Assembly: GCA_964616135.1 (NCBI GenBank)
Contig: CAZTTQ010000001.1
Location: 43,875 to 107,874, forward strand
Length of the DNA stretch: 64,000 nt
From: an uncultured Gammaproteobacteria bacterium
Lineage (GTDB): Bacteria; Patescibacteriota; Patescibacteriia; UBA9934; GWF2-40-263
Direction: 5' to 3'
The notes beneath the pieces were generated by a model, which was given only the letters and a program-made list of their open reading frames with translations, was not told the origin of the DNA and did not search any database. Both the position numbers and the translations under genes were made by a program. Each line of letters opens with the position of its first letter. The first letter of the stretch is position 1. Below are positions 3,742 through 60,291 of this stretch, piece after piece.

Positions 3742-5265
3742 TTACTCGGCGTCTGCCATTGCCGGGACGAACGTCACGGCGACGACGGACGGGGTGAGAT
3801 GGCGGCCGTTCGGGTGGAACAGGACGACGTCGCCGTCGCGCGGGAAGTAGCGGTGGTTGCCGCGTTCCTGCACGTAGAGCGTCTTTCCGTCCTCGACCGC
3901 CTGTTGGAAGCCGCCCTTGGGGTGGCGCCGCCGCACGATGGTGCCGAGTCGGTACCCCGCCAGCTGGAGATGGCGGCGAAGGGCCTTCTCCAGGCCATCG
4001 TCCTCGCGTCCCAGCTGCCGCCAGGCGACGTACACCTTGGAGGCGTTGGCGGACAGGAGGACCCGGCTCACGGTCTTGGCGTAAAAGCCGTGGCGCTCCT
4101 CCGGCGGCAGCTCCAGGAGGAGCGTGAACAGGAACTGCGCCGTCGGCTTCACGAGGAAGTCCTTCTCGACGGCCGCCAGCCGTTCCGCGAAGCGCGTGCG
4201 CTGGTCGACGGACAGACGTGCCCACTCGTCCGCGGGGACGTCCGAGACGGAATCGAGGCGGTCCAGCGCGTCTCCGACGATGATGTCCGCGGCGGCAGCG
4301 TCGAGGCGGCGCAGGATCCGCGCCCGCGCCTTGACCGTCTCGCCCGGGGCCTTCTCGGCGCAGAGGAGGAGTGCGGTCTCGAGCTCGCGGTTCGTCAGCA
4401 CGGACCAGGGGTTCAACCCGCAGAAAGCCGCCGTCCACTTCTCGGCCGCGGTCGGCCGCGCGTGCGGCGGAAACTCGAGCACGAAGTGGAAGGGGACGTT
4501 GGGCGGGAGACCGGCGTCCATCCGGGCGTTCTGCTCTGCCACCGTCTTCTCGATGGACGGCCAGGCCTTGTCCGGGGCACGGACGAGCTCGTCGTGGCGC
4601 CCGTTGCGCCCGTGTTCGATGCCCAGCCTCCGGACGGTCATCGCGATCGGACTTGCGTCCTCCGGTCGCTCGATCCCGTACCGTAGGAAGTCATGGACGT
4701 CGTTTGCCATCCCCGGTTCGATCCGCGTCCCGCGCAGGCGCTCGAGGAGCGCCTCGGCCATCGTCGCGCGGGAGACGCCTGCCATGGCGGCGGCACGCAC
4801 CCACTCGTTGTTGGTGGCGCCGAAGCGGGGATAGAGATCGCGGACGCAGCGGGTGCGGCCCTCGGGGGAGAGAAGCCGCAGCAGCTCCGGGGAGATGAGG
4901 AAGCTCCGGAAGAACCAGTGGGACGAGAGACGGACGCCCTCGTTCTTCTCCTGCGGATTTCCCTCCGCCCGGTCGTAGAGGCGGACCACGCTCTCCAGGA
5001 AGATGTCCGCGTCGCCGACGATCTGCAGGAACGGTTCCGGGTTCTCCGCGATCCAGCGCATTCCCATGGACACGGGGATCGTCTCGAACCCGCAGGCATC
5101 GATGAGGAGGATGAACCGCAGGAGGTCCGTCGGGGTCGCCGTGCCCGCCTTGACCTTCGCGGGGAAGGCGTCGCGGGCGGCCTGGAGTTCGTCGTAGGCC
5201 GTCCAGGTTCCCGCGATTTCCTGTCCCAGGATCTGTCGTGCGTCGATCAAGCTGACGGTCTGCAT
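3742..5265 (-). CDS. hypothetical protein (~507 aa), no recognisable family
   Basis: Protein-like composition and high GC3; start assigned to MQTVSL (M35) because the first 34 codons have low GC3 and the M35 ATG has GGAG 7 nt upstream; overlapping + strand ORF 3724..4686 has antisense-type composition. Confidence 0.6.
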   Translation of the reverse strand: MQTVSLIDARQILGQEIAGTWTAYDELQAARDAFPAKVKAGTATPTDLLRFILLIDACGFETIPVSMGMRWIAENPEPFLQIVGDADIFLESVVRLYDRAEGNPQEKNEGVRLSSHWFFRSFLISPELLRLLSPEGRTRCVRDLYPRFGATNNEWVRAAAMAGVSRATMAEALLERLRGTRIEPGMANDVHDFLRYGIERPEDASPIAMTVRRLGIEHGRNGRHDELVRAPDKAWPSIEKTVAEQNARMDAGLPPNVPFHFVLEFPPHARPTAAEKWTAAFCGLNPWSVLTNRELETALLLCAEKAPGETVKARARILRRLDAAAADIIVGDALDRLDSVSDVPADEWARLSVDQRTRFAERLAAVEKDFLVKPTAQFLFTLLLELPPEERHGFYAKTVSRVLLSANASKVYVAWRQLGREDDGLEKALRRHLQLAGYRLGTIVRRRHPKGGFQQAVEDGKTLYVQERGNHRYFPRDGDVVLFHPNGRHLTPSVVAVTFVPAMADAE

Positions 5266-5385
5266 CAAGGTCTCCGGTCGGTCGTCGAAAGACGTTGCCG
5301 AGTGAGAGGGGGGGGGTCTCGCATTCTCCGAAGGATTTCGAAGAAATACGAGGGGCGTTCTTATCATAAAAAACCCACGTTGTCA

Positions 5386-5676
5386 ATGGATATAGACGAT
5401 ATGCATCTCCTCCAACCGACGCACCGAAAATGGGTATTGGTTTGCACGAACATGAAAGAACCCGGGAAACCCTGTTGTGGGATCCAGGGGAGTGCCGACC
5501 TGCACCTGAAGTTAAAGGAGGCCATGAAGGCGGCGGACCTGACCGTCCGCGTGTCCAAGACCGGCTGTTTGGACCGTTGTTCCGAGGGACCCGTTGTCGC
5601 CATCATGCCGGATAACCGTTGGTTTGGCGGCGTTACCGAAGCGGACATCCCGGCCATCATTGAAGCGGCGAAATAA
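5386..5676 (+). CDS. thioredoxin-like [2Fe-2S] ferredoxin domain protein
   Basis: The Cys pattern C-x9-CC-x29-C-x3-C matches thioredoxin-like 2Fe-2S ferredoxins (NuoE/Fd4-like); the gene ends at a perfect palindromic terminator. Confidence 0.7.
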   Translation: MDIDDMHLLQPTHRKWVLVCTNMKEPGKPCCGIQGSADLHLKLKEAMKAADLTVRVSKTGCLDRCSEGPVVAIMPDNRWFGGVTEADIPAIIEAAK

Positions 5677-5682
5677 AAACGC

Positions 5683-5706
5683 ACGGCCCCGCGGGGCCGT
5701 GTTTGC
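5683..5706. terminator. bidirectional intrinsic terminator (cacggccccgcggggccgtg + TTTGCGTT)
   Basis: Perfect 20-nt palindrome followed by T-rich tail. Confidence 0.7.
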
Positions 5707-5710
5707 GTTG

Positions 5711-5746
5711 GAAGAAAAATCCCCCGGCCACAGGCGTGGTCGGGGG
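5711..5746 (-). terminator. minus-strand terminator of lipoprotein paralog 1; a copy of the cassette hairpin (cccccggccacAGGCGtggtcggggg + T-rich)
   Basis: Same hairpin sequence as at 7406-7432 and 8918-8944; T/A tract gaagaaaaat adjacent. Confidence 0.6.
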
Positions 5747-5752
5747 AGAAGG

Positions 5753-7279
5753 TCAGAACGACAGGTCTTTGCCGGCGACGAGCGGGTCGCCGTTGACGCA
5801 GAAGCCCTGCGCCATGACGAGGTCCGTGTAGCAGAAGCGGAGAATCTCGACGCGGAGGACGTTGCCCGGAACGGCCCGGGTCGCGTCCATTGCGAAACGG
5901 AAGACCCGTTCGGTCCCGTTTGCAAGCGTCCCGCCGTTTCCCGCCATGTTGATGACTGAGACCGTGGGGGAGATCGCCGTCCGGGTGACATCCGCGAAGA
6001 GTGCGGCGTCCGGCAGGGCGGCGTCCGTGGTCCGAACCGCCTCCGTGCCGCCGTACCACCCGTCGTGGGTGAGGCGGTACCGTACGGAGGTGAGGAGGGC
6101 GTCGTGTCCGGCGGGTGCGGCGGGGTTCACTACGCGGAACGCCAGCGTGTTGGCGAACGACGGGGAGACGGTTCCCGCGGGGGAATCGTCCGTCCGCGCG
6201 GCTTGCGGCATCTGGGGGATCCGGATGAACGCGTAGTCGTGGTGGGACGCGTTCGTCGCGCCGTAGGCGATCTCCGGAACTTCTCCCGTATCGGCGTCCC
6301 GCAGGTCGATGGACCGGAGGGACGCGGCCAGGAGGAAGTTCGGCGCGCCGACGTTCGCGTTCGTCCAACAGAAGACGCCGAGTTCGCCGGATCCATGCAG
6401 GACGAACGGTTGGTCCGCGAACGAGAGGACGGTCCGTCCCTCTTCGGCCGCGGGACGCCGTCCGGATGCCTGTCCCGGAGGCGTGGTTGGCCCCGCGTAG
6501 GAAACGTAGCAGGCGCCGATACGGTCGCGCAGCAAGGAGGAAGACGCCTCCCAGACGTTGGTCCCGTCGAACGGGGCCACGTCCTGGACGACGTCGAGGT
6601 CGATCCTGGCCACGCGGACGTTCCGGTCTCCGGCACGGACGGAGAGGCGGAGGAACTGGAACAGGCCGCCCGGATACGACTGGGTGACCGTGTCCTCGTC
6701 CGGAGACGCGTCCCCGACCGCCACGATGCCGGGCGGCGGGTTTACCAACGGTTCGCATGAGCGGCCGTCCGCGGCGAGGGTTTCCCCCCGTTCGCAGCGC
6801 CGCTTGCACGTGGCGGTTGCCGTGTCGAACAGCCATCCCTCGTCACACGTGACGTCGTAGGCGCAGGATGCATGGCCGGTCTCCCGGTCCATGTTCGGCG
6901 AGAGGCCGTCCGGACACGTGATCGTGACGTCCGGGCACTCCTTTTCGGAGAACACCTCCGCGCCCGTGGAGAGACAGACGTAGAAGATCACTTCTTCCGG
7001 CGGCTGCGTCGTGGGGCACGCGCCCGCGCGCGGGCGGATGGAACCGTCGGCGCAGACGTAGACGCGCTTCTCGACGACCTTCGCAGGACCGCCGAACGGA
7101 TGGCAGGCGATCCCGCCGTCTTCCACCACCGCCCCTTCATCGGGGAGGCAGGGGACTGAGAAGCAGGCGCCGGAGGAGGTCGCGTACGACCCTTCCGGGC
7201 ACGAGGAGGAGACGGGGGCGTCTCCACAGGATGCCAGGGCCGATGCGGCCAGGGCGAAGTACATGAGGCGGGTGCGCAT
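5753..7279 (-). CDS. secreted cysteine-rich lipoprotein, paralog 1 of a tandem family (508 aa)
   Basis: The signal peptide ends in a lipobox (ALASC) and the N-terminal half is cysteine-rich. The C-terminal region aligns with paralog 2 (e.g. VRVDVTGFCYRD / LRVEILRFCYTD). The gene has an ATG start with GGAGGT. Confidence 0.75.
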   Translation of the reverse strand: MRTRLMYFALAASALASCGDAPVSSSCPEGSYATSSGACFSVPCLPDEGAVVEDGGIACHPFGGPAKVVEKRVYVCADGSIRPRAGACPTTQPPEEVIFYVCLSTGAEVFSEKECPDVTITCPDGLSPNMDRETGHASCAYDVTCDEGWLFDTATATCKRRCERGETLAADGRSCEPLVNPPPGIVAVGDASPDEDTVTQSYPGGLFQFLRLSVRAGDRNVRVARIDLDVVQDVAPFDGTNVWEASSSLLRDRIGACYVSYAGPTTPPGQASGRRPAAEEGRTVLSFADQPFVLHGSGELGVFCWTNANVGAPNFLLAASLRSIDLRDADTGEVPEIAYGATNASHHDYAFIRIPQMPQAARTDDSPAGTVSPSFANTLAFRVVNPAAPAGHDALLTSVRYRLTHDGWYGGTEAVRTTDAALPDAALFADVTRTAISPTVSVINMAGNGGTLANGTERVFRFAMDATRAVPGNVLRVEILRFCYTDLVMAQGFCVNGDPLVAGKDLSF

Positions 7280-7346
7280 GGCACCTCCGATATCCCCGGA
7301 ATGGGGACGGGTTTTGGCCCTTTCAAGGGGGCCTGGTTGGGAGAGA
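7280..7346 (-). promoter_or_regulatory. conserved structured 5' leader (copy 1): two hairpins GGCCC-CCUUGAAA-GGGCC and UCCCC-AUUCC-GGGGA before GGAGG
   Basis: ~65 nt of near-identical sequence also at 9860-9925 and 10383-10450, read on the minus strand. Confidence 0.5.
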
Positions 7347-7356
7347 GCAAGGACGA

Positions 7357-7385
7357 ATGATAGGTCTTTTTCAACCGTTTGTCAA
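7357..7385 (-). promoter_or_regulatory. sigma70-type promoter TTGACA-N17-TATCAT (minus strand) for paralog 1
   Basis: Exact consensus -35 and 17-nt spacer; part of repeated cassette. Confidence 0.6.
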
Positions 7386-7393
7386 TCGTCCAT

Positions 7394-7432
7394 GGAAAAG
7401 AAAATCCCCCGGCCACGGCGTGTGGTCGGGGG
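7394..7432 (-). terminator. terminator of paralog 2 (hairpin cccccggccac/gtggtcggggg + ATTTTCTTTTCC on minus strand); cassette copy A
   Basis: GC hairpin immediately followed by T-rich run downstream of stop at 7439. Confidence 0.6.
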
Positions 7433-7438
7433 AGAGCG

Positions 7439-8791
7439 TCAGAACGTCCACGTCTCGCCCGTGATGAGCACGGAGGAGTTGTCCAGGCAGGTTTCCACGT
7501 CCGCGAACGGATCGCGGTAGCAGAACCCGGTGACGTCGACGCGGACGGTGTCCGTGCCGGGCGCCCGCGCCTGCTCCGTGTCCATCTGGAACCGGAGCGT
7601 CAGCGGACGGGACGCCTGGATCGGGACCGCGTCGCGGGCCGTGTCCTGCATGAGGAACAGGAATTCCCCGTTGCTGGCGTTCGTCTGGATGTTGGTGAAC
7701 AACGAGCGCGACGGGTCGCGGATGTCGGTCACCCGTACGGTGGAAGGCGCGGTGTACCAGCCGTTGTCGATGATCGCAAACTGGACGGACCAGGTCTGCA
7801 GATCTCGACAGGACGCGTCGGCCACCACGTCGAACCGGAGGACTTCCCGGAGCGTGGTGGGCGTGGTGGGGTCCCAGTCCGTCTGCCCGACCTGGAGGAC
7901 GGGCGGCGGACAGGGGGGAAGCGGCGCGGCGCGGACCTGGTAGCTGAAATCGCTGTTCAGGTCCTCGAAGGTCACTTCGCTGCCGACGATGGGTTCGCCG
8001 GTTTCCGCGTCGACCAGGGTGACCAGGTCGAGCACGAGCGCCACGTGGTATGCGACCGGCGACGGCTTGAGGTCGCACTGGACGCTCACGTTGATGGACG
8101 TCCCCGAGCCGACGGCTTCGGGAAAGAACACCATCGCCTGCTCGGACAGGGGGACGTGGTCCAAGGACACTGGCCCCGCGACCTGCGCGGTGCTTGCATC
8201 CGTCAGCGTGCAGTCGCCGAGGTATTCGGCGACGTCCGCCTGGGTATGGAGCCACAGGGTCCGGTCGGGCACGACGCCGTCCTGCTCCACGCCGACGTAG
8301 GCGAGGAACCGGACGTCGCGCAACGTCACGGCGCGCGTCTCGTCCTGGATGATGAGCGGAAACAGGTCGGTGCGGGTTCCCACCGTCGTGTCGACGAGCC
8401 GCGGGACGCCGCCGTTCGGCGGGCGGACGGAGACGGTCCCCCGGACCTGCTGTCGGACACAGCCGTCGCCGGAGGCGTTCACCGTCTGGCCGGGCGGGCA
8501 CACCTTGAGGCAGGCCTTGGAGACCTCCTCGTACGCGTACCCGTCCGCGCAGGCCCGGGGACAGTCTTCCGGACGATCGACGTAGGTGTCGGTCGCCACG
8601 CACTTGTACTTGGTGACCGTCTCCTTTACGGTCACGGTTTCCTTGATGACGACCGGGGCGTCGACCGGGCACCGGGCCGGGTCGGTCACCCGCGTCTGCG
8701 CCGCGTCGCGGCAGACGTATTCCTGCGGCACGTCACCGCAGGCGGTGGCAAGGGAAAAGAGCAAGACGAACGGGACAGGGGGACGGAACAT
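7439..8791 (-). CDS. secreted cysteine-containing lipoprotein, paralog 2 (451 aa)
   Basis: Start taken at MFRPPVPFVLLFSLATAC (lipobox) with AAGGAG 6 nt upstream; C-terminal homology to paralog 1; longer track ORF to 8887 rejected. Confidence 0.7.
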   Translation of the reverse strand: MFRPPVPFVLLFSLATACGDVPQEYVCRDAAQTRVTDPARCPVDAPVVIKETVTVKETVTKYKCVATDTYVDRPEDCPRACADGYAYEEVSKACLKVCPPGQTVNASGDGCVRQQVRGTVSVRPPNGGVPRLVDTTVGTRTDLFPLIIQDETRAVTLRDVRFLAYVGVEQDGVVPDRTLWLHTQADVAEYLGDCTLTDASTAQVAGPVSLDHVPLSEQAMVFFPEAVGSGTSINVSVQCDLKPSPVAYHVALVLDLVTLVDAETGEPIVGSEVTFEDLNSDFSYQVRAAPLPPCPPPVLQVGQTDWDPTTPTTLREVLRFDVVADASCRDLQTWSVQFAIIDNGWYTAPSTVRVTDIRDPSRSLFTNIQTNASNGEFLFLMQDTARDAVPIQASRPLTLRFQMDTEQARAPGTDTVRVDVTGFCYRDPFADVETCLDNSSVLITGETWTF

Positions 8792-8868
8792 GGGTTTACT
8801 CCTTCGGTGGGGCGCGGCCTTCGCCATTACGATAACACGTCCGTTCATTTGTGATAGGGCGAGGAGTG

Positions 8869-8897
8869 ACGATAGGCGTTTTTCCAAGGTTTGTCAA
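8869..8897 (-). promoter_or_regulatory. sigma70-type promoter TTGACA-N17-TATCGT (minus strand) for paralog 2; cassette copy B
   Basis: Consensus -35, 17-nt spacer; ~85 nt cassette nearly identical to 7345-7440. Confidence 0.6.
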
Positions 8898-8905
8898 CCG
8901 TCCGT

Positions 8906-8944
8906 GGAAAAGAAAATCCCCCGGCCACAGTGTGTGGTCGGGGG
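8906..8944 (-). terminator. terminator of paralog 3 (cassette copy B hairpin + T-rich)
   Basis: cccccggccacagtgtgtggtcggggg hairpin followed on minus strand by attttcttttcc. Confidence 0.6.
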
Positions 8945-8959
8945 AGGTAGGGGGCGCGT

Positions 8960-9859
8960 TTATGGCGTGTCGCGGGGATCGGGCTCCGTCCCGCAGAGGA
9001 TGTACCGGTTGCCGGCCAGCACGTCGAACGCCGTTTCAGAGAGGATGATCCTCTTACCGGTGGTTAGCCCGTACGCTTCGGTCCGGGAGACCACGAGGCT
9101 CGTGGCCCAGCCGTTGAAGCCGTGGGCATTCCGGCAGACGTTCATGTCGCCGGAGAGGCCAGTGTTGAGCTGGCTCGTCCCTCCCTTTGGGACGAACATC
9201 CGGATGGGGATTTGCGCGTCCGCGTTCACCGCTCCGTCGGCGGAGGCGTGGTACGCCACGTTGCCTTCGTCGGTGTAGTACACGTGACTGGCCGTGATCC
9301 AGCTCGCCCAGTCGCCCTGGAGGCCGAGGCTGCCCAGGCCGAGCGCGACCTTGGTGACCACGAAGTCTTCTCCGACCGCGTGGAACACGAACCCGCTCGT
9401 CTCCGCCCAGCTACCATCGGTTGCCGGAGCGTATTCGACGCGCTCGGTGCCGGCGAGGGTCACGTACACGCGGCTGGTGGCCGCGATGCGGGAGAGCTCG
9501 TCGCCGCCGACCGCCGTGCAGGTGCCGTCCGACTGCAGGACGTTGCCGGCGGCGCAAGGGAACTTCCACGCCGGCGTGCACGACCCATCCTCGTGGAGAA
9601 GATCTTCGTCCCCGCAAGGGAACACCCAGGGTGTCTCGGGGTCGGCCGGCGGGACGCAGGTTCCGTCGGACGCCTCGAGCATGCCGCGGGCGCAGTGCTT
9701 CTCCCGGGCGACCAGGTCGTCCGGATCGGCGCAGACGCCGAGGGACGTGAGCACTTCGCCGGCCCTGCAGGGGAACTTCCACGCCGCGGTGTCGCCGCAG
9801 GCGGAGAGGGTCGCCGCAAGCAGGATTGCCGCGGCGTAGAACGACGTGTGGATGCGCAA
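8960..9859 (-). CDS. secreted lipoprotein, paralog 3 (299 aa) with three internal W-[KV]-F-P-C...G.C repeats
   Basis: The signal peptide ends in the lipobox LSAC. The apparent start codon is TTG, directly after the conserved leader with GGAGGCGCG. Three ~35-aa repeats (WKFPCRAGEVL, WVFPCGDEDLL, WKFPCAAGNVL) are visible. Confidence 0.7.
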   Translation of the reverse strand: MRIHTSFYAAAILLAATLSACGDTAAWKFPCRAGEVLTSLGVCADPDDLVAREKHCARGMLEASDGTCVPPADPETPWVFPCGDEDLLHEDGSCTPAWKFPCAAGNVLQSDGTCTAVGGDELSRIAATSRVYVTLAGTERVEYAPATDGSWAETSGFVFHAVGEDFVVTKVALGLGSLGLQGDWASWITASHVYYTDEGNVAYHASADGAVNADAQIPIRMFVPKGGTSQLNTGLSGDMNVCRNAHGFNGWATSLVVSRTEAYGLTTGKRIILSETAFDVLAGNRYILCGTEPDPRDTP

Positions 9860-9925
9860 CGCGCCTCCGATGTCCCCGGGATGGGGACGGTTTTGGCCCT
9901 TTCAATGGGGCCGAGTTGCGAGAGA
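9860..9925 (-). promoter_or_regulatory. conserved structured 5' leader (copy 3)
   Basis: GGCCCCAUUGAAAGGGCC and GUCCCCAUCCCGGGGAC hairpins then GGAGG; near-identical to copies at 7280 and 10383. Confidence 0.5.
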
Positions 9926-9973
9926 GCTGGAGCTGGTCAAGGCTCGCGAGGGATTCGTGAGCTTTGTGCAGCG

Positions 9974-10004
9974 CCCGACGCGGAGAGAGTCTCTCGCGTC
10001 GGGG
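9974..10004. other. strong near-perfect palindrome (cccgacgcggagaga g tctctcgcgtcgggg) between paralogs 4 and 3, no T-tract
   Basis: ~15-bp stem read directly; may be a processing/stability element or partial terminator; no clear promoter for paralog 3 downstream of it. Confidence 0.4.
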
Positions 10005-10016
10005 AAAGAGAATGGG

Positions 10017-10382
10017 TCACTTCGGAGGGATGACACCTTGGATGTCGTAGTCCATTATGGCGTCGCACTGCAGCTGGTCCTGCATATTGTGACCGCAGAA
10101 GTCGGCGGATGGGTCGTGGGTGACCACGATCGGTGCAATAGGTACGGGGTCTATGTGGAAGAAGAAGATCGGCGGATCCATCTCCTGAGCCATCTTGATT
10201 ACCGGCCCGGGCGGGCAGGAGCGGGGGTCGTTCGCCTCGGTGTCGTCGGCACAGACGTACACCTTTTCCGTCTGGACCACGACCTTCTCAGTCGTGACAG
10301 TGACGATCTCCGACTCGCAGGCCGCGATCAGGTTCGCCAGGGCCAGGATGGCCGCGGCGCAGAACGTGGTGTAAGCGCGCAA
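10017..10382 (-). CDS. small secreted lipoprotein, paralog 4 (121 aa)
   Basis: Signal peptide + lipobox (IAAC); TTG start after conserved leader GGAGGCGCT; Cys-containing. Confidence 0.65.
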   Translation of the reverse strand: MRAYTTFCAAAILALANLIAACESEIVTVTTEKVVVQTEKVYVCADDTEANDPRSCPPGPVIKMAQEMDPPIFFFHIDPVPIAPIVVTHDPSADFCGHNMQDQLQCDAIMDYDIQGVIPPK

Positions 10383-10450
10383 AGCGCCTCCGATGTCCCC
10401 GGGATGGGGACGGTTTTGGCCCTTTCAAGGGGGCCTGGTTGGGAACGTGC
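10383..10450 (-). promoter_or_regulatory. conserved structured 5' leader (copy 4)
   Basis: Same two-hairpin sequence as copies 1 and 3. Confidence 0.5.
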
Positions 10451-10542
10451 TCTTTTGGGCGAGAAGCCCGTACTTAGTGACGTTTCCTAGGCAGAAACAC
10501 TCAATAAATACGGGCCTTCCTCCCTGATCAATTCGAGGGAAA

Positions 10543-10571
10543 ACTATAGCACTTTTTGGCCCGTTTGTCAA
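10543..10571 (-). promoter_or_regulatory. sigma70-type promoter TTGACA-N17-TATAGT (minus strand) heading the lipoprotein array
   Basis: Consensus -35/-10 with 17-nt spacer; flanking sequence ccgtttgtcaatcgt matches the cassette. Confidence 0.55.
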
Positions 10572-10586
10572 TCGTGCCAGGGCAAC

Positions 10587-10619
10587 GAAAAACCCACCCG
10601 TGGAATGGGTGGGTTTTTA
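10587..10619. terminator. bidirectional terminator (aaaaa cccaccc gtggaat gggtggg ttttt)
   Basis: Perfect 7-bp GC stem flanked by A5 and T5; downstream of peroxiredoxin stop. Confidence 0.7.
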
Positions 10620-10627
10620 CGTTCGAT

Positions 10628-11179
<552 letters not shown>

Positions 11180-11190
11180 ATCAAGAGAGA

Positions 11191-11814
11191 TTACAGAGAA
11201 ATGGTTCTGGCTTTTAGGTAGAGTTCTTCTGCTCTTGCCCAGTTGAAGTTCTTCCAGAACGCGGCGATGTAAGCCGCCTTGTCCGCGCCGTAGTCCAGGA
11301 AGTACGCGTGTTCGTAGCAATCCATCACGATGACCGGGACACAGCCCCAGACGCCGCCTTGGTTGTGCGCGTCGCCGTTGTACTGCTTCAGCCGGCCGGC
11401 CTTCAAGTCCCAGCAGACGACGCTCCAGCCGCGCGACGCCATGCCGCAGGCGGAGAGATACGCGAGCGCGTTTTCCACGGAGCCCCATTTTTCGGCCAGG
11501 GCTTTGGAGAGTTCCGGCGCCGCGGCGACGTTGCCGTCCCCGCCTAAGACGTCAAAGTACCACTCGTGCAGGTAGACGCCGTTGACGGCGAAGGTCTCCG
11601 CGTCTTTTAGCGAACGCAGGTCCGAATAGGTGGCGTTGCCGGTGGCGGTGCCAGAGAGCGCCAGTTCTTTCAGCTTTTCGCTTACTTCTTTCAACTTATT
11701 CACGTAGCCGACGTACAGCTTGTCATGGTGGATCTCCACCGTCTTTTTTGAAATGCCGTCCAATTCCTTGGAAAAGGGAAGTGGGTGCGCTTGAACGTCC
11801 GCGTGGGAAGCCAT
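11191..11814 (-). CDS. Fe/Mn superoxide dismutase
   Basis: The product is 207 aa with SOD metal-ligand motifs (H...H, DxWEHAYY-like DCYEHAYFLDY); it lies 11 nt upstream of the peroxiredoxin on the same strand. Confidence 0.9.
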   Translation of the reverse strand: MASHADVQAHPLPFSKELDGISKKTVEIHHDKLYVGYVNKLKEVSEKLKELALSGTATGNATYSDLRSLKDAETFAVNGVYLHEWYFDVLGGDGNVAAAPELSKALAEKWGSVENALAYLSACGMASRGWSVVCWDLKAGRLKQYNGDAHNQGGVWGCVPVIVMDCYEHAYFLDYGADKAAYIAAFWKNFNWARAEELYLKARTISL

Positions 11815-37816: not shown

Positions 37817-39283
37817 CTACTTGGCCAGGTTTTTGAGGGCGAGATCCAGACGGCGCAAGGTTTCGGCCTTGCCGAGGATCCAGGCGAATTCGAACGGGCC
37901 GGGAGACATGGCGCGGCCGGACAGCGCGACGCGGGTCGGCCACAGCACGTTGCCGTTTTTGAGTCCGTTGGCGGCGATGTAGCCGAGCACTTCCGCTTCC
38001 AGCGCCTTCAGGTCCGCGAACGCCGCTTCCGGAAGGCCGTCCAGCAGTTTGGACACGGCCTGCAGGCTGCGGATGGCGTCCTTCGCGTCCGCTTTCTTCC
38101 AAACGAGCAGGGACGGCTCATACGCGGGCAGCGCGGCAAACGTTTCCACGGACGCGTTGATGTCCGACAGCTTCACCAGGCGCGCGCGCTCGACGGCGCA
38201 GAGTTTAAGAAGGAGCGTTTCTTCCACGGGCGCCGCCAGGAACGGACGGCAGAGGTCCGCGAGCTCCTCCGGTGTTTTCTTTTGGAGGTACTGCTGGTTC
38301 ATCCAGTCCAATTTTTCCAAGTTGAAGACGCCTCCGGCGCTGTTCACCTTGGACAGGTCGAAGAGCGAGATCATTTCCTCCCGCGTATAGATTTCCTGGT
38401 CGCCCTTGGGATTATAGCCGATGAGCGAGAGGAAGTTTTCCAACGCCTCGGGCAGGTAGCCCTTCGCCAAATAGTCTTCCACCGCGACGTCGCCCTGACG
38501 CTTGGACAATTTGCTCTTGTCCGCGTTTAGGATGAGCGGCAGGTGGGCGTACACGGGCTTTTCCCAACCGAACGCGTCAAAGAGACGGTAGTGCTTGGGC
38601 AGCGAAGACAACCACTCTTCCCCGCGGATGACGTGGGTCGTGTCCATCAGGTGGTCGTCCACGGCGTGGGCGAGGTGGTACGTCGGGAAGCCGTCCGTCT
38701 TGAGGGCGATGAAGTCCTCTTGGTCGGCGTTCGGGAAGCGGACCGTGCCGCGGATGACGTCCTTGGTTTCCGTGACGCCTTCGTCCGGCATGCGGACGCG
38801 GATGACGTGCGCCTCGCCGGCAGCGGCGCGCTTGGCACTTTCTTCCGCGGACAATTTCACGCAGGCGCGGTCATACTTGAGCGGCTGCTTGGTAGCTTCC
38901 TGGACCTTGCGCACTTCGTCCAGGCGTTCGCGGGTGCAGAAACAGCGGTACGCGTGGCCGTCCGCGACCAACTGGGCCGCGTACTTCTTATACAAGTCCA
39001 AGCGGTTGGATTGGACGTACGGGCCTTTGTCTCCCTTTTCCGCTAGCGTGCCGTCCGCCTTCAGCACGGGGCCTTCGTCATACTCAATGCCAAGTCGGCC
39101 CAAGGTGCGGATGAGCGCCTCTACCGCGCCAGGAACGAGGCGTTCCTGGTCCGTGTCTTCGATGCGGACGAAAAACGTGCCACCGTTTTGGCGGGCGACG
39201 TAGTACGCGTAAAGGGCGGTGCGCAAATTGCCGACGTGCAGGTAGCCGGTCGGCGACGGGGCGATACGGGTGCGAACGCGCAT
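37817..39283 (-). CDS. gltX: glutamyl-tRNA synthetase
   Basis: Start at MRVRTRIAPSPTGYLHVGN (HIGH-type HVGN), KLSKR (KMSKS-type); N-terminal 166 aa of track ORF are non-coding-looking. Confidence 0.9.
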   Translation of the reverse strand: MRVRTRIAPSPTGYLHVGNLRTALYAYYVARQNGGTFFVRIEDTDQERLVPGAVEALIRTLGRLGIEYDEGPVLKADGTLAEKGDKGPYVQSNRLDLYKKYAAQLVADGHAYRCFCTRERLDEVRKVQEATKQPLKYDRACVKLSAEESAKRAAAGEAHVIRVRMPDEGVTETKDVIRGTVRFPNADQEDFIALKTDGFPTYHLAHAVDDHLMDTTHVIRGEEWLSSLPKHYRLFDAFGWEKPVYAHLPLILNADKSKLSKRQGDVAVEDYLAKGYLPEALENFLSLIGYNPKGDQEIYTREEMISLFDLSKVNSAGGVFNLEKLDWMNQQYLQKKTPEELADLCRPFLAAPVEETLLLKLCAVERARLVKLSDINASVETFAALPAYEPSLLVWKKADAKDAIRSLQAVSKLLDGLPEAAFADLKALEAEVLGYIAANGLKNGNVLWPTRVALSGRAMSPGPFEFAWILGKAETLRRLDLALKNLAK

Positions 39284-39293
39284 AAGAAAAGGC

Positions 39294-40100
39294 TTAGCGC
39301 CCGGCAAGGAGAAGGCCGAAGACGCGGCGGCAGGCGGAGAAGAATTTTTTCTGCTTGAGTGTAGCCAAAGCGACGGTGGTTGGGAAGACAACGACGGCGC
39401 GGGCGATCCGGACGAACCGGCGCGGTTCCAGGCCCAGGCGCCACAGCCATTCCCACCCTCGGTCACGCCAAGCCTGCGGCGCGCGCGGGAGAACGCCTCC
39501 CAGCATTTCCAGGGCGCCGCCGACGCCGATGGCGACGCGGACGTCCGGGAATCCGGACAGAACCTCTTCCATGAACAGTTCTTGCTTCCCCTGGCCGAGC
39601 GCCACCGCGACGACCGACGGGCGGCGGAGGCGGAACAGGTCCCGCGTGCTGGGTGACATGGTCCATGTCCCGTTTTCCGCGCGCAAAACCGTGCCGGGGT
39701 CATGGGCCTCAACCCGGAGCGTTGGGTACAGGCCGCGCAGATAGGCGGCGGCCGCTTCCCCGCTGCCCGTTTTGCCGCCAAGAAGCATCAAGGACTTTCC
39801 ATGTGCCGCGCACATGGCCGCCAACTCCTTTAGGACGTCCACGCCCGCGTGGCGATGCTCCAACCGGTCGCCGAACGCGGCGGCGGCGTACTGCAGGCCG
39901 ACGCCGTCCGGAACGGAGAGATCCGCCCGGTTCAACCGGGCGGCAAAGGCCTCATCTTTTTTGGCCTGCAGGAGGATTTCCGGGTTTGGCGTGACGACCG
40001 TATGCAAGCGCGGTTCTTCAAACCACGCCTCTACAAGCCCCCGCAGCTCCGCGAGGGTCAGGTCTTGGACGACGACACCGAACAGGGGGACGGGACGCAC
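39294..40100 (-). CDS. WecB/TagA/CpsF-family glycosyltransferase
   Basis: TPNPEIL and VPDGVGL motifs align with TagA/WecG; start uncertain (candidate GTG at 40100; no clear SD). Confidence 0.65.
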   Translation of the reverse strand: MRPVPLFGVVVQDLTLAELRGLVEAWFEEPRLHTVVTPNPEILLQAKKDEAFAARLNRADLSVPDGVGLQYAAAAFGDRLEHRHAGVDVLKELAAMCAAHGKSLMLLGGKTGSGEAAAAYLRGLYPTLRVEAHDPGTVLRAENGTWTMSPSTRDLFRLRRPSVVAVALGQGKQELFMEEVLSGFPDVRVAIGVGGALEMLGGVLPRAPQAWRDRGWEWLWRLGLEPRRFVRIARAVVVFPTTVALATLKQKKFFSACRRVFGLLLAGR

Positions 40101-51742: not shown

Positions 51743-52282
51743 TTAGGCGGCGTCCTTCAACAGCGCGCGGAACCGGTCGCGCAGCTTGTCCATTTTAGGA
51801 TTGATGACCAGGCGGCAGTACGCCTTGTCCGGGTTGTTTTGGAAGTACTGGCGATGATACGCCTCGGCCGGATAGAACGCCGGGAGCGGGGCGATTTCCG
51901 TCACGACCTTCTTTCCTTCCTCATTCAACTTGGAGACGAACGCCTCCGCGGCCGCCTTTTGCGCCCGCGTCGTGTAAAAGACGACGGATCGGTACTGCGT
52001 GCCGATATCGTTTCCCTGCCGGTTCAATGTGGTTGGGTCGTGCGTGGCGAAAAACACCGTCAGCAGGTCGTCAAAGGCGACGACTGCGGGGTCGAATTCC
52101 ACACGCAACACCTCCGCGTGGCCCGTTTCACCCGTACAGACCTGTTCGTACGTCGGGTTTGGCACCGATCCGCCCGCGTAGCCGGGCAGGACGGACGTGA
52201 CGCCCTTCAGTGATTCGAACACCGCCTCCGTACACCAGAAGCACCCGCCGCCGAACGCGACCGTCTCCAACATGGAAGCCAT
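51743..52282 (-). CDS. msrA: peptide methionine sulfoxide reductase MsrA
   Basis: GGGCFWC active-site motif. Confidence 0.9.
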   Translation of the reverse strand: MASMLETVAFGGGCFWCTEAVFESLKGVTSVLPGYAGGSVPNPTYEQVCTGETGHAEVLRVEFDPAVVAFDDLLTVFFATHDPTTLNRQGNDIGTQYRSVVFYTTRAQKAAAEAFVSKLNEEGKKVVTEIAPLPAFYPAEAYHRQYFQNNPDKAYCRLVINPKMDKLRDRFRALLKDAA

Positions 52283-59396: not shown

Positions 59397-59789
59397 TTAT
59401 TTGCGGACGAAGAGCTGCTTGTACTTGTCCCAGTACGCGTAACCGAAGTAGACGTTCAATACTGTGACAATGATGCCGACAGGCAAACTCTCCGGGGACG
59501 TGCGTGCGTGGAACACTAGGACGCCGATACAGATCGGTGCCAAGAAAATGGCGGCGAGGGCCGGGAGGAATCCCGTGACCAGCATCAGGCCGGCGACGAT
59601 TTCCGTGATCTTAATCATGTGAAAAATCCCCGTGGCGATGAGTGCCTGCGTCATCGGGACCATCTGGGGCGGAATGCCTTCAAGCGTCGGGGACTGCATG
59701 GCCAGGAGGCCGCCCACGCCGGACATGATGAAGAAGAGACCGGTCAGGACGCGCAGCGTGGTGAGCAAATACTTGTTGCGGAAGTTCAT
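59397..59789 (-). CDS. DoxX-family membrane protein
   Basis: 4-TM pattern typical of DoxX; start MNFRNKYLL. Confidence 0.55.
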   Translation of the reverse strand: MNFRNKYLLTTLRVLTGLFFIMSGVGGLLAMQSPTLEGIPPQMVPMTQALIATGIFHMIKITEIVAGLMLVTGFLPALAAIFLAPICIGVLVFHARTSPESLPVGIIVTVLNVYFGYAYWDKYKQLFVRK

Positions 59790-59799
59790 ACGAACGTGG

Positions 59800-60291
59800 T
59801 TATGGTTTTTCTTGCATGATAATGTCATCGATCTGAAAATCGCTGGCGGTCACGCGTACGACAAAGTCAGGATGAACGGATGTTTCCGCGCGCCATTCCC
59901 CACGGACGGGCTGAAACATTTTCCTGGGTAACACGTGGACGTACCCCACTTTTTCTCTCAATCCTGCCAGGACCGCTTTGGACATTTTCACGTACGGCTT
60001 TCCGTCCGCGACTCCAAACGCGCTGTAGTAGCCGTAGTCGGGAAACTGGTCCTGGTTTACGAGCGCGCGGAAGATGGCGATGTCCGCGTGTTCGGTTGCT
60101 GCGACGGCAGGAGCCCCGTCCGGTTCCATACGCCTGCTGGCGGGAGAAAAATTTTTCCCTTGGCGCGGCTCAAGCGTTTCAATGCTCCGCGCCGAGCCAT
60201 GGAACACATAGCGCCCGCTCCGCTCAAGCTCCAACAGACGCTCGCGCGGCGAGCGTTCGCGTTCCGGCGGTTTCGGCATTCCCTGTTCCAT
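59800..60291 (-). CDS. hypothetical protein (163 aa)
   Basis: ORF contiguous with neighbours on same strand; no family recognised. Confidence 0.4.
   Translation of the reverse strand: MEQGMPKPPERERSPRERLLELERSGRYVFHGSARSIETLEPRQGKNFSPASRRMEPDGAPAVAATEHADIAIFRALVNQDQFPDYGYYSAFGVADGKPYVKMSKAVLAGLREKVGYVHVLPRKMFQPVRGEWRAETSVHPDFVVRVTASDFQIDDIIMQEKP

Follow-up and report, generated by a model that had tools for sequence, protein, structure and literature searches.

Four genes for predicted lipoproteins lie head to tail in the chromosome of an uncultured bacterium, and the spaces between them contain non-coding blocks that recur. What kind of system do these genes and blocks make up? The question arises from a stretch of 64,000 nucleotides (contig CAZTTQ010000001.1 of assembly GCA_964616135.1, positions 43,875 to 107,874 of the forward strand; hereafter the window, whose own numbering is used throughout), for which a preliminary description had reported, at positions 5711-10620, a tandem array of lipoprotein genes separated by a repeated terminator-promoter cassette. 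Having followed up this description computationally, we consider it reasonably probable that the locus is a three-unit tandem array of modular, anchored lipoproteins, which would be co-regulated, and reshuffled, by way of a common 5′ module.

The genes are located on the minus strand in the order LP4-LP3-LP2-LP1. LP4 (10017-10382) encodes 121 amino acid residues from a TTG start codon; LP3 (8960-9859) encodes 299 residues, also from a TTG; LP2 (7439-8791) encodes 450 residues from an ATG at 8791, which is preceded by GAAGGAG; and LP1 (5753-7279) encodes 508 residues. All of the products are predicted lipoproteins, and their lipoboxes, IAAC, LSAC, ATAC and LASC, respectively, are those that had been read before, as are the lengths with the exception of LP2, which had been given as 451 residues. 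A PROSITE PS51257-like lipobox pattern fits all four proteins, after a basic n-region and a hydrophobic core. Beyond the lipobox cysteine, LP1, LP2, LP3 and LP4 contain 18, 14, 10 and 4 cysteines, respectively, and such even counts are expected for disulfide-bonded extracytoplasmic proteins. The third-position GC of the four genes (0.83-0.88) is like that of the housekeeping genes in the window, and public gene calls give exactly the same four products, each as a singleton cluster. Horizontal transfer was considered on the basis of composition and set aside; with a GC content of 0.67-0.69, the array exceeds the mean of the window by little and gives no clear sign of it.

The relationships among the four proteins turned out to be more complex than simple paralogy. 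Homology between LP1 and LP2 extends through some 430 residues (E 3e-16, 22-26% identity) and includes a C-terminal motif, FCY.D...C..N..L..G...F. The homology that had been noticed between them is thus confirmed, but it is not restricted to the C-terminus and covers nearly the whole length. The four genes had all been called paralogous, whereas only LP1 and LP2 are paralogs along their length. LP3 and LP4 share N-terminal segments: residues 1-116 of LP3 match the N-terminal part of the family (profile comparison, probability 92%), and residues 1-61 of LP4 correspond to the N-terminal module of the family (hhalign probability 99%, E 8e-18). In LP3, three or four (A/P)W(K/V)FPC...G..L...G.C repeats are followed by an orphan C-terminal domain of about 184 residues, a search with which returned only itself, and the 60-residue tail of LP4 has no match in any of the loci. 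At the DNA level, LP1, LP3 and LP4 have in common a block consisting of the 5′ untranslated region (UTR) and the signal peptide sequence (65-79% identity over 98-137 nt), which starts about 65 nt upstream of the start codon and ends within the signal peptide. LP2 has its own distinct leader and signal peptide. This repeat before LP1, LP3 and LP4 adds to those listed in the preliminary description.

Related loci keep the surroundings of the array and change what lies inside. A scan of genomes with a narrow alignment yielded one locus in a metagenome-assembled genome (MAG), and a scan of metagenomes yielded one locus. Three related metagenomic contigs carry the neighborhood of the window with different genes between the flanks. 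L002 (ENA ERZ724505) has, in this order, genes for superoxide dismutase (SOD), peroxiredoxin (Prx), an LP2 orthologue, a 125-residue open reading frame (ORF) without lipoprotein features, P0008, ferredoxin and PepA. L004 (Logan SRR22387933) has DUF3179, SOD, Prx, a 51-residue ORF, orf238, P0007, ferredoxin, orf371 and PepA, and L005 has P0010, ferredoxin and PepA. Conservation of the neighborhood among relatives is thus borne out for the SOD-Prx and ferredoxin-PepA flanks, whereas each of the relatives examined has its own set of family genes in the interval from Prx to ferredoxin. More distant members of the family are found in other contexts, in L001 (the MAG, labelled 'uncultured Gammaproteobacteria bacterium'), L007, L009, L010 and L011 (GCA_964502845.1). 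Beside the array, a 541-codon ORF (orf541, 3742-5367, minus strand) with good coding statistics and no match in Pfam lies between the ferredoxin and PepA genes; the corresponding position is empty in L002 and L005 and occupied by an unrelated 371-codon ORF in L004, and constitutes a second variable slot.

Between the window and L002, Prx, ferredoxin and PepA are 96%, 90% and 94% identical, respectively, with a synonymous divergence (dS) of 0.5-1.1 and a ratio of nonsynonymous to synonymous divergence (dN/dS) of 0.06-0.09. The LP2 orthologue (L002:790-2082) is 60% identical to LP2, with a dN/dS of 0.39. These values show that the family genes evolve fast, yet under purifying selection overall. 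The presence of an LP2 orthologue in L002 also means that the duplication that gave rise to LP1 and LP2 predates the separation of the window from L002 and is therefore old. The proposal of a recent tandem duplication of whole transcription units is accordingly not tenable, given that LP1 and LP2 are only 22-26% identical and that the orthologue in L002 has diverged to 60%.

The L004 locus provides an example of what can be attached to the N-terminal module. Its orf238 (L004:2880-3596, plus strand) encodes a lipoprotein that has the family leader, the signal peptide and an (H)KFPC N-terminus, and that contains the sequence HEFAH in its body. A match to reprolysin/M66-like (metzincin) proteases is weak (E ~1e-3, 19 bits against a Pfam cut-off of 22), and suggests that the module can accept heads with enzymatic activity as well. 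LP3 and orf238 occupy an equivalent slot and have about 35 N-terminal residues in common, including (W/H)KFPC, and carry unrelated heads; this combination points to head swapping.

The non-coding modules are the best-conserved part of the locus, beyond the proteins. The 157-nt spacer between LP4 and LP3 (9860-10016) is 89% identical to L002:2618-2772, even though the genes that flank it there are unrelated. This identity is well above the synonymous-site expectation, as 0.36-0.58 of the synonymous sites (pS) differ between the flanking genes of the window and L002. By reading the upstream regions of all family genes, we found four recurring elements. The promoter element has the form TTGACAAAAGGGCCAAAAAGTG(C/G)TATA.T, with a spacer that is kept across contigs of 55-65% GC; a promoter of the type found upstream of LP4 (P4), including the spacer AAAGGGCCAAAAAGTG, is also present in L002, L004, L007, L009, L011 and L001. 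A leader module of about 70 nt stands immediately before the start codon and consists of a CU-rich tract, hairpin H1 (GGCCC/GGGCC), CAAAACC, hairpin H2, CAUCGGAGGCGC and, usually, a TTG or GTG start codon. At LP4 (10380-10448, minus strand), H2 is GUCCCC/GGGGAC and the start codon TTG, and the copy scores 90.2 bits with R1, the covariance model of this module. The LP4-LP3 spacer contains, on the minus strand, a hairpin H0 (9974-10003; CCCCGACG...CGUCGGG, without a U tract), a middle hairpin, a CU-rich tract and a second copy of the module extending from H1 through H2 to the Shine-Dalgarno sequence (9857-9925; 91.3 bits). A further copy of the two-hairpin module precedes LP1 (7277-7346, minus strand; 90.7 bits). 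The z scores of the predicted folds are -4.4 for the whole spacer and -4.0 for H0.

We assessed the conservation of these structures by covariation. R1 was built from seven copies and finds eleven, the four outside the training set having E values of 2.5e-15 to 3e-6, and all eleven lie directly upstream of a family gene. Standard base pairs are present at all scored positions in the eleven sequences, and H2 contains three pairs with compensatory changes. Its stem occurs as GUCCCC/GGGGAC, GCUCCC/GGGAGC, GCUCCA/UGGAGC, GCCCCG/CGGGGC and GUCCCUC/GAGGGAC. The covariation score of the R1 alignment was 0.304, compared with 0.143 for shuffled alignments (0/500 shuffles reached the observed score) and at most 0.089 for slid controls. 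RNAalifold on five spacers predicted 42 pairs, eight of them with compensatory changes, and its fold raises the suggestion that the CU-rich tract pairs with the Shine-Dalgarno sequence.

The fourth element, the long leader, is proximal to the promoter and about 90 nt long (10452-10541, minus strand). It consists of a small 5′ hairpin, a hairpin of about 20 bp (GCCCGUA...UACGGGC) and a U-rich tract, which is UUUU in the general element and a degenerate UUCUCG in the window copy. With its covariance model, R2, each locus gives a single hit, on the sense strand (window copy, 87.7 bits, E 2e-20). RNAalifold predicted 27 pairs, of which six have compensatory changes, and the z scores of the fold are -4.2 in the window, -7.1 in L004 and -5.7 in L011. 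By its predicted structure, the long leader resembles a terminator or an attenuator. Rfam has no match at the gathering threshold in the window, the leaders giving only chance-level similarities at E>=0.2, such as to mir-505. These two structured RNA modules with compensatory changes had escaped the preliminary description. In L001, the most distant relative, the leader (L001:5390-5514) follows a strong ribosome-binding site and start codon (AAGGAGG-N5-ATG) and could also add 38 codons in frame to the lipoprotein gene, which is how the gene caller treated it. We rejected such an N-terminal extension of P0006 as the explanation for the leader, since neither the ATG nor the frame is kept in the window, where AGG and a stop codon are found instead, and we treat the conservation of the leader as one at the nucleotide level. 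As the frame is not kept elsewhere, the reading in L001 may reflect a miscall or an upstream ORF peculiar to that lineage.

The long leader is followed by a small ORF that is not the same in any two of the four genomes concerned. It is LP4 in the window (10017-10382), a basic, cytoplasmic-looking protein of 125 residues in L002 (L002:2240-2617), a hydrophobic, Cys-rich peptide of 51 residues in L004 (L004:2582-2737) and a membrane peptide of 55 residues in L011 (L011:5649-5816).

We then consider how the array may be transcribed. The block at 7337-7434 is 83% identical to that at 8849-8946 over 98 nt, and there are two partial copies, a terminator alone at 5712-5748 and a promoter alone at 10543-10571, so that the repeated intergenic block is real. 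A 32-nt hairpin pattern and a 33-nt leader pattern each had no match in 100 shuffles. Within the 64-kb window, matches to the hairpin and leader patterns are confined to the array, and this speaks against a genome-wide repeat. The three putative terminator hairpins have folding energies of about -21 kcal/mol with z scores of -4.4 to -5.0, and each is followed by a U-rich tract. A scan for TTGACA-N17-TATnnT returned four sites, against 0.7 expected; three of them lie exactly upstream of LP4, LP2 and LP1, with 10-11 of 12 consensus positions matched. The order of a GC-rich terminator and a TTGACA-N17 promoter in each block, as described earlier, is thus upheld as a prediction.

On the minus strand, the predicted signals are arranged as follows. 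P4 (10543-10571; TTGACA-N17-TATAGT with a TG before the -10 element, 11/12 matches) comes directly after the terminator of Prx (10592-10610). The cassette T3/P2 (8849-8946) has a hairpin at 8917-8945 with a U tract (z -5.0), followed by TTGACA-N17-TATCGT at 8869-8897, and the cassette T2/P1 (7337-7434) has a hairpin at 7405-7433 with a U tract (z -4.4), followed by TTGACA-N17-TATCAT at 7357-7385. The array ends (5682-5748) with the T1 hairpin (5720-5747) and its U tract (z -4.5), and then a GC hairpin (5682-5701) that is common to the array end and the convergent ferredoxin gene; the counterpart of this whole end region lies at L002:4234-4312. LP3 has no cassette of its own upstream. Because the promoter scan found no match in the LP4-LP3 spacer and the spacer hairpin lacks a U tract, LP4 and LP3 are probably co-transcribed, and one transcript per gene, as had been supposed, is unlikely for this pair. 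From consensus and folding, we infer the starts and stops of three transcription units, LP4-LP3, LP2 and LP1, with the terminator-promoter cassettes as the predicted joints between them. The number of promoter matches is three in the window, two in L002 and one in L004, in each case paired with terminator hairpins; this would fit loci built from one to three tandem units, each with a promoter, an optional leader, one or more genes and a terminator. That the non-coding blocks have stayed so similar we ascribe to constraint or gene conversion. The same modules are kept in genomes whose family proteins are about 30% identical.

The protein family itself is very rare and unannotated. Pfam and NCBIfam gave no match for LP1-LP4 or nine relatives, and a sequence-profile search of the PDB gave no match for the family. 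A HMMER profile search of 1.84 billion representative proteins returned 17 sequences at E<=1e-3, including two queries, and ten at E<=1e-10; there are thus about 15 relatives in this collection. A word-indexed protein search with LP1 and an 11-sequence alignment returned the query alone, a result of little weight for LP1 as the same search missed relatives that HMMER had found. Exact look-ups of LP1 and P0005 gave no contig. The full-length relatives, of 470-650 residues, all begin with the signal peptide MR.HT.FYA.AI.ALA.L..AC, which is followed by 'YVCADGS..D...CPP' repeats, an eight-Cys module (CP.GT...GC.Y..TCHEGWAY.P.T.TCKKYC..GETL.ADG..C) and two beta-rich domains. AlphaFold2 on an alignment of LP1 and LP2 gave a mean predicted local distance difference test score (pLDDT) of 49, and that model was not used. 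With the 11-sequence alignment, the pLDDT of LP1 was 75.8 overall, about 90 for residues 360-508 and about 80 for residues 185-355. This model has a Cys-rich region at residues ~65-180 and beta-sandwich domains at ~185-355 and ~360-508. LP1, LP2 and most relatives would carry two cohesin/Ig-like beta-sandwiches, the fold match being a generic one, and the Pfam Cohesin and Ig-like families gave no match at E<=1. The absence of a recognizable family, stated in the preliminary description, is thus supported by the hidden Markov model searches of Pfam, NCBIfam and PDB sequences, which were empty.

How would such an array work? In the order of the predicted units, P4 would be followed by the long leader, LP4, the structured spacer, LP3 and T3; P2 by LP2 and T2; and P1 by a short leader, LP1 and T1. 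The 5′ module that defines the family would begin with a sigma-70-type promoter, the spacer of which is conserved, and a structured leader RNA with its last hairpin directly next to the Shine-Dalgarno sequence. A start codon, usually a weak one (TTG or GTG), would follow, and then the coding sequence for a lipoprotein signal peptide and a cysteine-rich N-terminal stalk. Onto this module would be placed different C-terminal heads, namely pairs of beta-sandwiches, the orphan domain of LP3, the short unrelated tail of LP4 or an HExxH domain. The pre-proteins would be exported, lipidated at the lipobox cysteine and tethered to a membrane. The stalk would be disulfide-bonded, a proposal consistent with the even numbers of cysteines. 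Cohesin-like and Ig-like beta-sandwiches are binding modules typical of surface adhesins and scaffolds, and the heads might mediate binding or adhesion outside the cytoplasm. All members would receive one regulatory input through the promoter and leader that they have in common. Access of the ribosome would probably be controlled by H2 together with the upstream CU-rich tract, which is able to pair with GGAGG, and the long leader would place a further element, either a terminator-like attenuator or a small RNA, in front of the array. Recombination, duplication, loss and head swapping could make use of the homology among the repeated 5′ modules and cassettes, and this would account for the different genes that every relative examined has between Prx and ferredoxin.

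Several points weigh against this interpretation. LP2 and its orthologue are without the shared leader and signal peptide, so that the 5′ module is not obligatory for the family, and LP4 could be a decaying fragment instead of a functional gene. The promoters, the terminators and the division into operons are predictions from consensus and folding only. The counts of base pairs come from a model-fitted alignment of only eleven sequences, several of which are closely related, and H1 is invariant, so that covariation neither supports nor refutes this helix. Confidence in the LP1 model is only moderate over its Cys-rich part (pLDDT 60-80). The matches of the beta-sandwiches, with template modeling (TM) scores of 0.2-0.47 and identities of about 10% (3-12%), are generic and say nothing specific on the ligand. 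Finally, the sequence features would be compatible with anchoring at an outer surface, in the periplasm or at the surface of a monoderm cell.

Other explanations have to be weighed against a co-regulated modular array. If the locus were an ordinary, recently duplicated cluster, the repeated non-coding blocks would be neutral leftovers without function, as might be supposed from two tandem cassettes that are 83% identical. This is very unlikely, because the duplication is old (LP1/LP2 identity of 22-26%, LP2 orthologue in L002) and the cassettes are nevertheless still similar, and because the LP4-LP3 spacer has remained 89% identical where 36-58% of the synonymous sites in flanking genes differ (dS 0.5-1.1). 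Moreover, the same modules are present in contigs with family proteins that are about 30% identical and with GC contents of 55-61% as against 62% in the window, and compensatory changes keep the hairpins intact. The recurrence of GC-rich palindromic hairpins in the intergenic spacers might instead recall selfish repeats of the repetitive extragenic palindrome (REP) or miniature inverted-repeat transposable element (MITE) type that happen to lie between these genes. We give this idea hardly any credence; every copy in the 64 kb falls within the array, where the copies always have the same order and orientation with respect to promoters and start codons, and the copies in relatives occur only beside family genes.

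The difference in gene content among relatives, and paralogous lipoprotein genes with a conserved 5′ UTR and signal peptide as in vpma/vsp (PMC2268961), would also be features of a phase- or antigenic-variation locus of the Mycoplasma vsp/vpma type, in which one gene at a time is expressed and switching occurs through site-specific recombination in the 5′ UTR or through slipped-strand tracts. Such a locus is highly improbable here in view of three separate predicted promoters instead of one, the location of all genes on one strand and the lack of inverted repeats bracketing a promoter or a gene. No recombinase domain was found in the neighboring genes scanned, a result that is not absolute in that orf541 has no Pfam match. 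Neither homopolymers of >=7 nor simple repeats nor in-frame tandem repeats were seen, the Tandem Repeats Finder output containing only two trivial two-copy rows. Of the lineage-specific, possibly variable surface system envisaged in the preliminary description, the variability thus holds for the gene content between genomes, but the hallmarks of phase variation are missing. A polymorphic effector system, in which the N-terminal module would anchor interchangeable effector domains or deliver them to the surface or to neighboring cells, with turnover driven by an arms race, would account for the common leader, signal peptide and first ~35 residues on unrelated heads (HExxH in orf238, the LP3 orphan domain, cohesin-like domains), for the faster evolution of LP2 than of its neighbors (dN/dS 0.39 against 0.06-0.09) and for the small variable ORF that heads each operon. 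It is nonetheless rather unlikely in our estimation, as no toxin/immunity pair is recognizable, dN/dS is still below 1, the metzincin match is under the Pfam threshold (E 1e-3, 19 bits versus 22) and most heads are beta-sandwiches of the binding type.

A bolder version of the co-regulated array is conceivable, although we would not call it probable: the non-coding modules could represent cis-regulatory RNAs of a new family that serves these lipoprotein genes alone, and the locus a 'plug-in' expression site. The promoter-proximal element would then act as an attenuator that depends on a ligand or a protein, or would yield a terminated small RNA, and the per-gene module would gate the translation of each cassette that recombines behind it. 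If so, recombination into the 5′ module would be enough to provide unrelated extracytoplasmic domains with regulation, export, a lipid anchor and a disulfide stalk. Redox or oxidative stress might be the signal to which the site responds, an idea that derives from its constant position beside SOD-Prx and from the Cys-rich nature of the proteins.

For the tandem array of modular lipoproteins, the interpretation we prefer, the significance is severalfold. The work defines a protein family without annotation, with about 15 clusters among the 1.84 billion representatives, in which the strongest conservation falls on the shared module for expression, export and anchoring, not on the proteins. Such an organization has so far been described mainly in host-associated pathogens (Borrelia erp, Mycoplasma vsp), and here would occur in uncultured, metagenome-assembled bacteria. 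The two candidate structured RNA motifs, with covariation, absence from Rfam and a clear genetic association, are directly testable, and a recombination hot spot between conserved genes could be used as a strain-level marker of surface diversity within the lineage.

Genes for redox defense surround the locus. An Fe/Mn SOD and a 2-Cys Prx are encoded directly upstream and a thioredoxin-like [2Fe-2S] ferredoxin directly downstream, with MsrA and DoxX further away (coordinates of the redox genes: 5404-5676, 10628-11814, 51743-52282 and 59397-59828). The order SOD-Prx-array-ferredoxin is kept in L002 and L004. In two loci that are not syntenic with the window, a gene for a DsbD_2-cupredoxin membrane protein, with or without an HMA domain, lies a few kb from a family gene (L001:1690-3066 and L009:1883-3022), a possible link to disulfide or copper handling. 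The 64-kb window contains no tRNA, rRNA or Rfam gathering-level RNA and no lgt or lsp gene, and many of its ORFs have no Pfam match. It encodes MreB, PBP2, a prepilin peptidase and TfoX, and no outer-membrane marker was seen in the 64 kb. A tblastn match of LP1 at 37962-38255 (plus strand) was considered as a fifth paralog and dismissed as spurious, being antisense to the gene for GluRS. The GluRS ORF (37817-39781, minus strand) has 654 codons, with the catalytic domain beginning only at about residue 169; it either has an N-terminal extension of ~165 residues or starts internally.

Comparison with known systems places the array among several partial analogues. The beta-sandwich heads resemble cellulosomal cohesins, the C-terminal domains of AgI/II and the Ig-like domains of PrgB in a very common fold only, and the array has neither a dockerin partner nor an LPXTG anchor. 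The leaders, judged by their sequences and predicted folds, are reminiscent of attenuators, riboswitches and leaders that sequester the ribosome-binding site, in having a promoter-proximal hairpin with a U tract, a hairpin and a CU-rich tract at the Shine-Dalgarno sequence, and compensatory substitutions; they differ in having no match in Rfam and, in the window, a degenerate U tract. In Mycoplasma, the clustered lipoprotein genes vpma/vsp/vlp conserve the 5′ UTR and the signal peptide even across species while the mature parts differ, and vpma/vsp switch by means of a single promoter and a Xer-type recombinase (PMC2268961). LP1, LP3 and LP4 likewise share these parts (65-79%, 98-137 nt), and LP2 does not. 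In the Mycoplasma loci, only a single promoter is active, a recombinase is encoded next to the cluster, the 5′ UTR contains recombination sites, the genes point in both directions and the mature proteins are repetitive; we found none of these traits in the array.

In organization, the closest analogue would be the erp family of Borrelia burgdorferi (OspE/F-related, 'upstream homology box' lipoproteins). Its members conserve the promoter/operator, the leader polypeptide and the first residues of the mature protein, and the remaining parts of the ORFs have diverse origins; erp genes recombine, and the members are co-expressed from their own conserved promoters (PMC10016077). The window array likewise joins a shared promoter, leader, signal peptide and N-terminus to unrelated heads, a likeness in architecture only. 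The array proteins match no Pfam family, the Borrelia lipoprotein families included, and there is no sequence relationship of the array to Borrelia erp or to Mycoplasma vsp/vpma. Whereas the Erp genes reside on cp32 prophage plasmids, at allelic sites on many replicons, the array genes are in tandem at one chromosomal locus between housekeeping genes, and the array has covarying RNA hairpins, a terminator-like leader and a Cys-rich stalk. Set beside erp and vsp/vpma, the array stands apart by its structured leader RNAs, by the Cys-rich stalk and by its fixed site in the chromosome.

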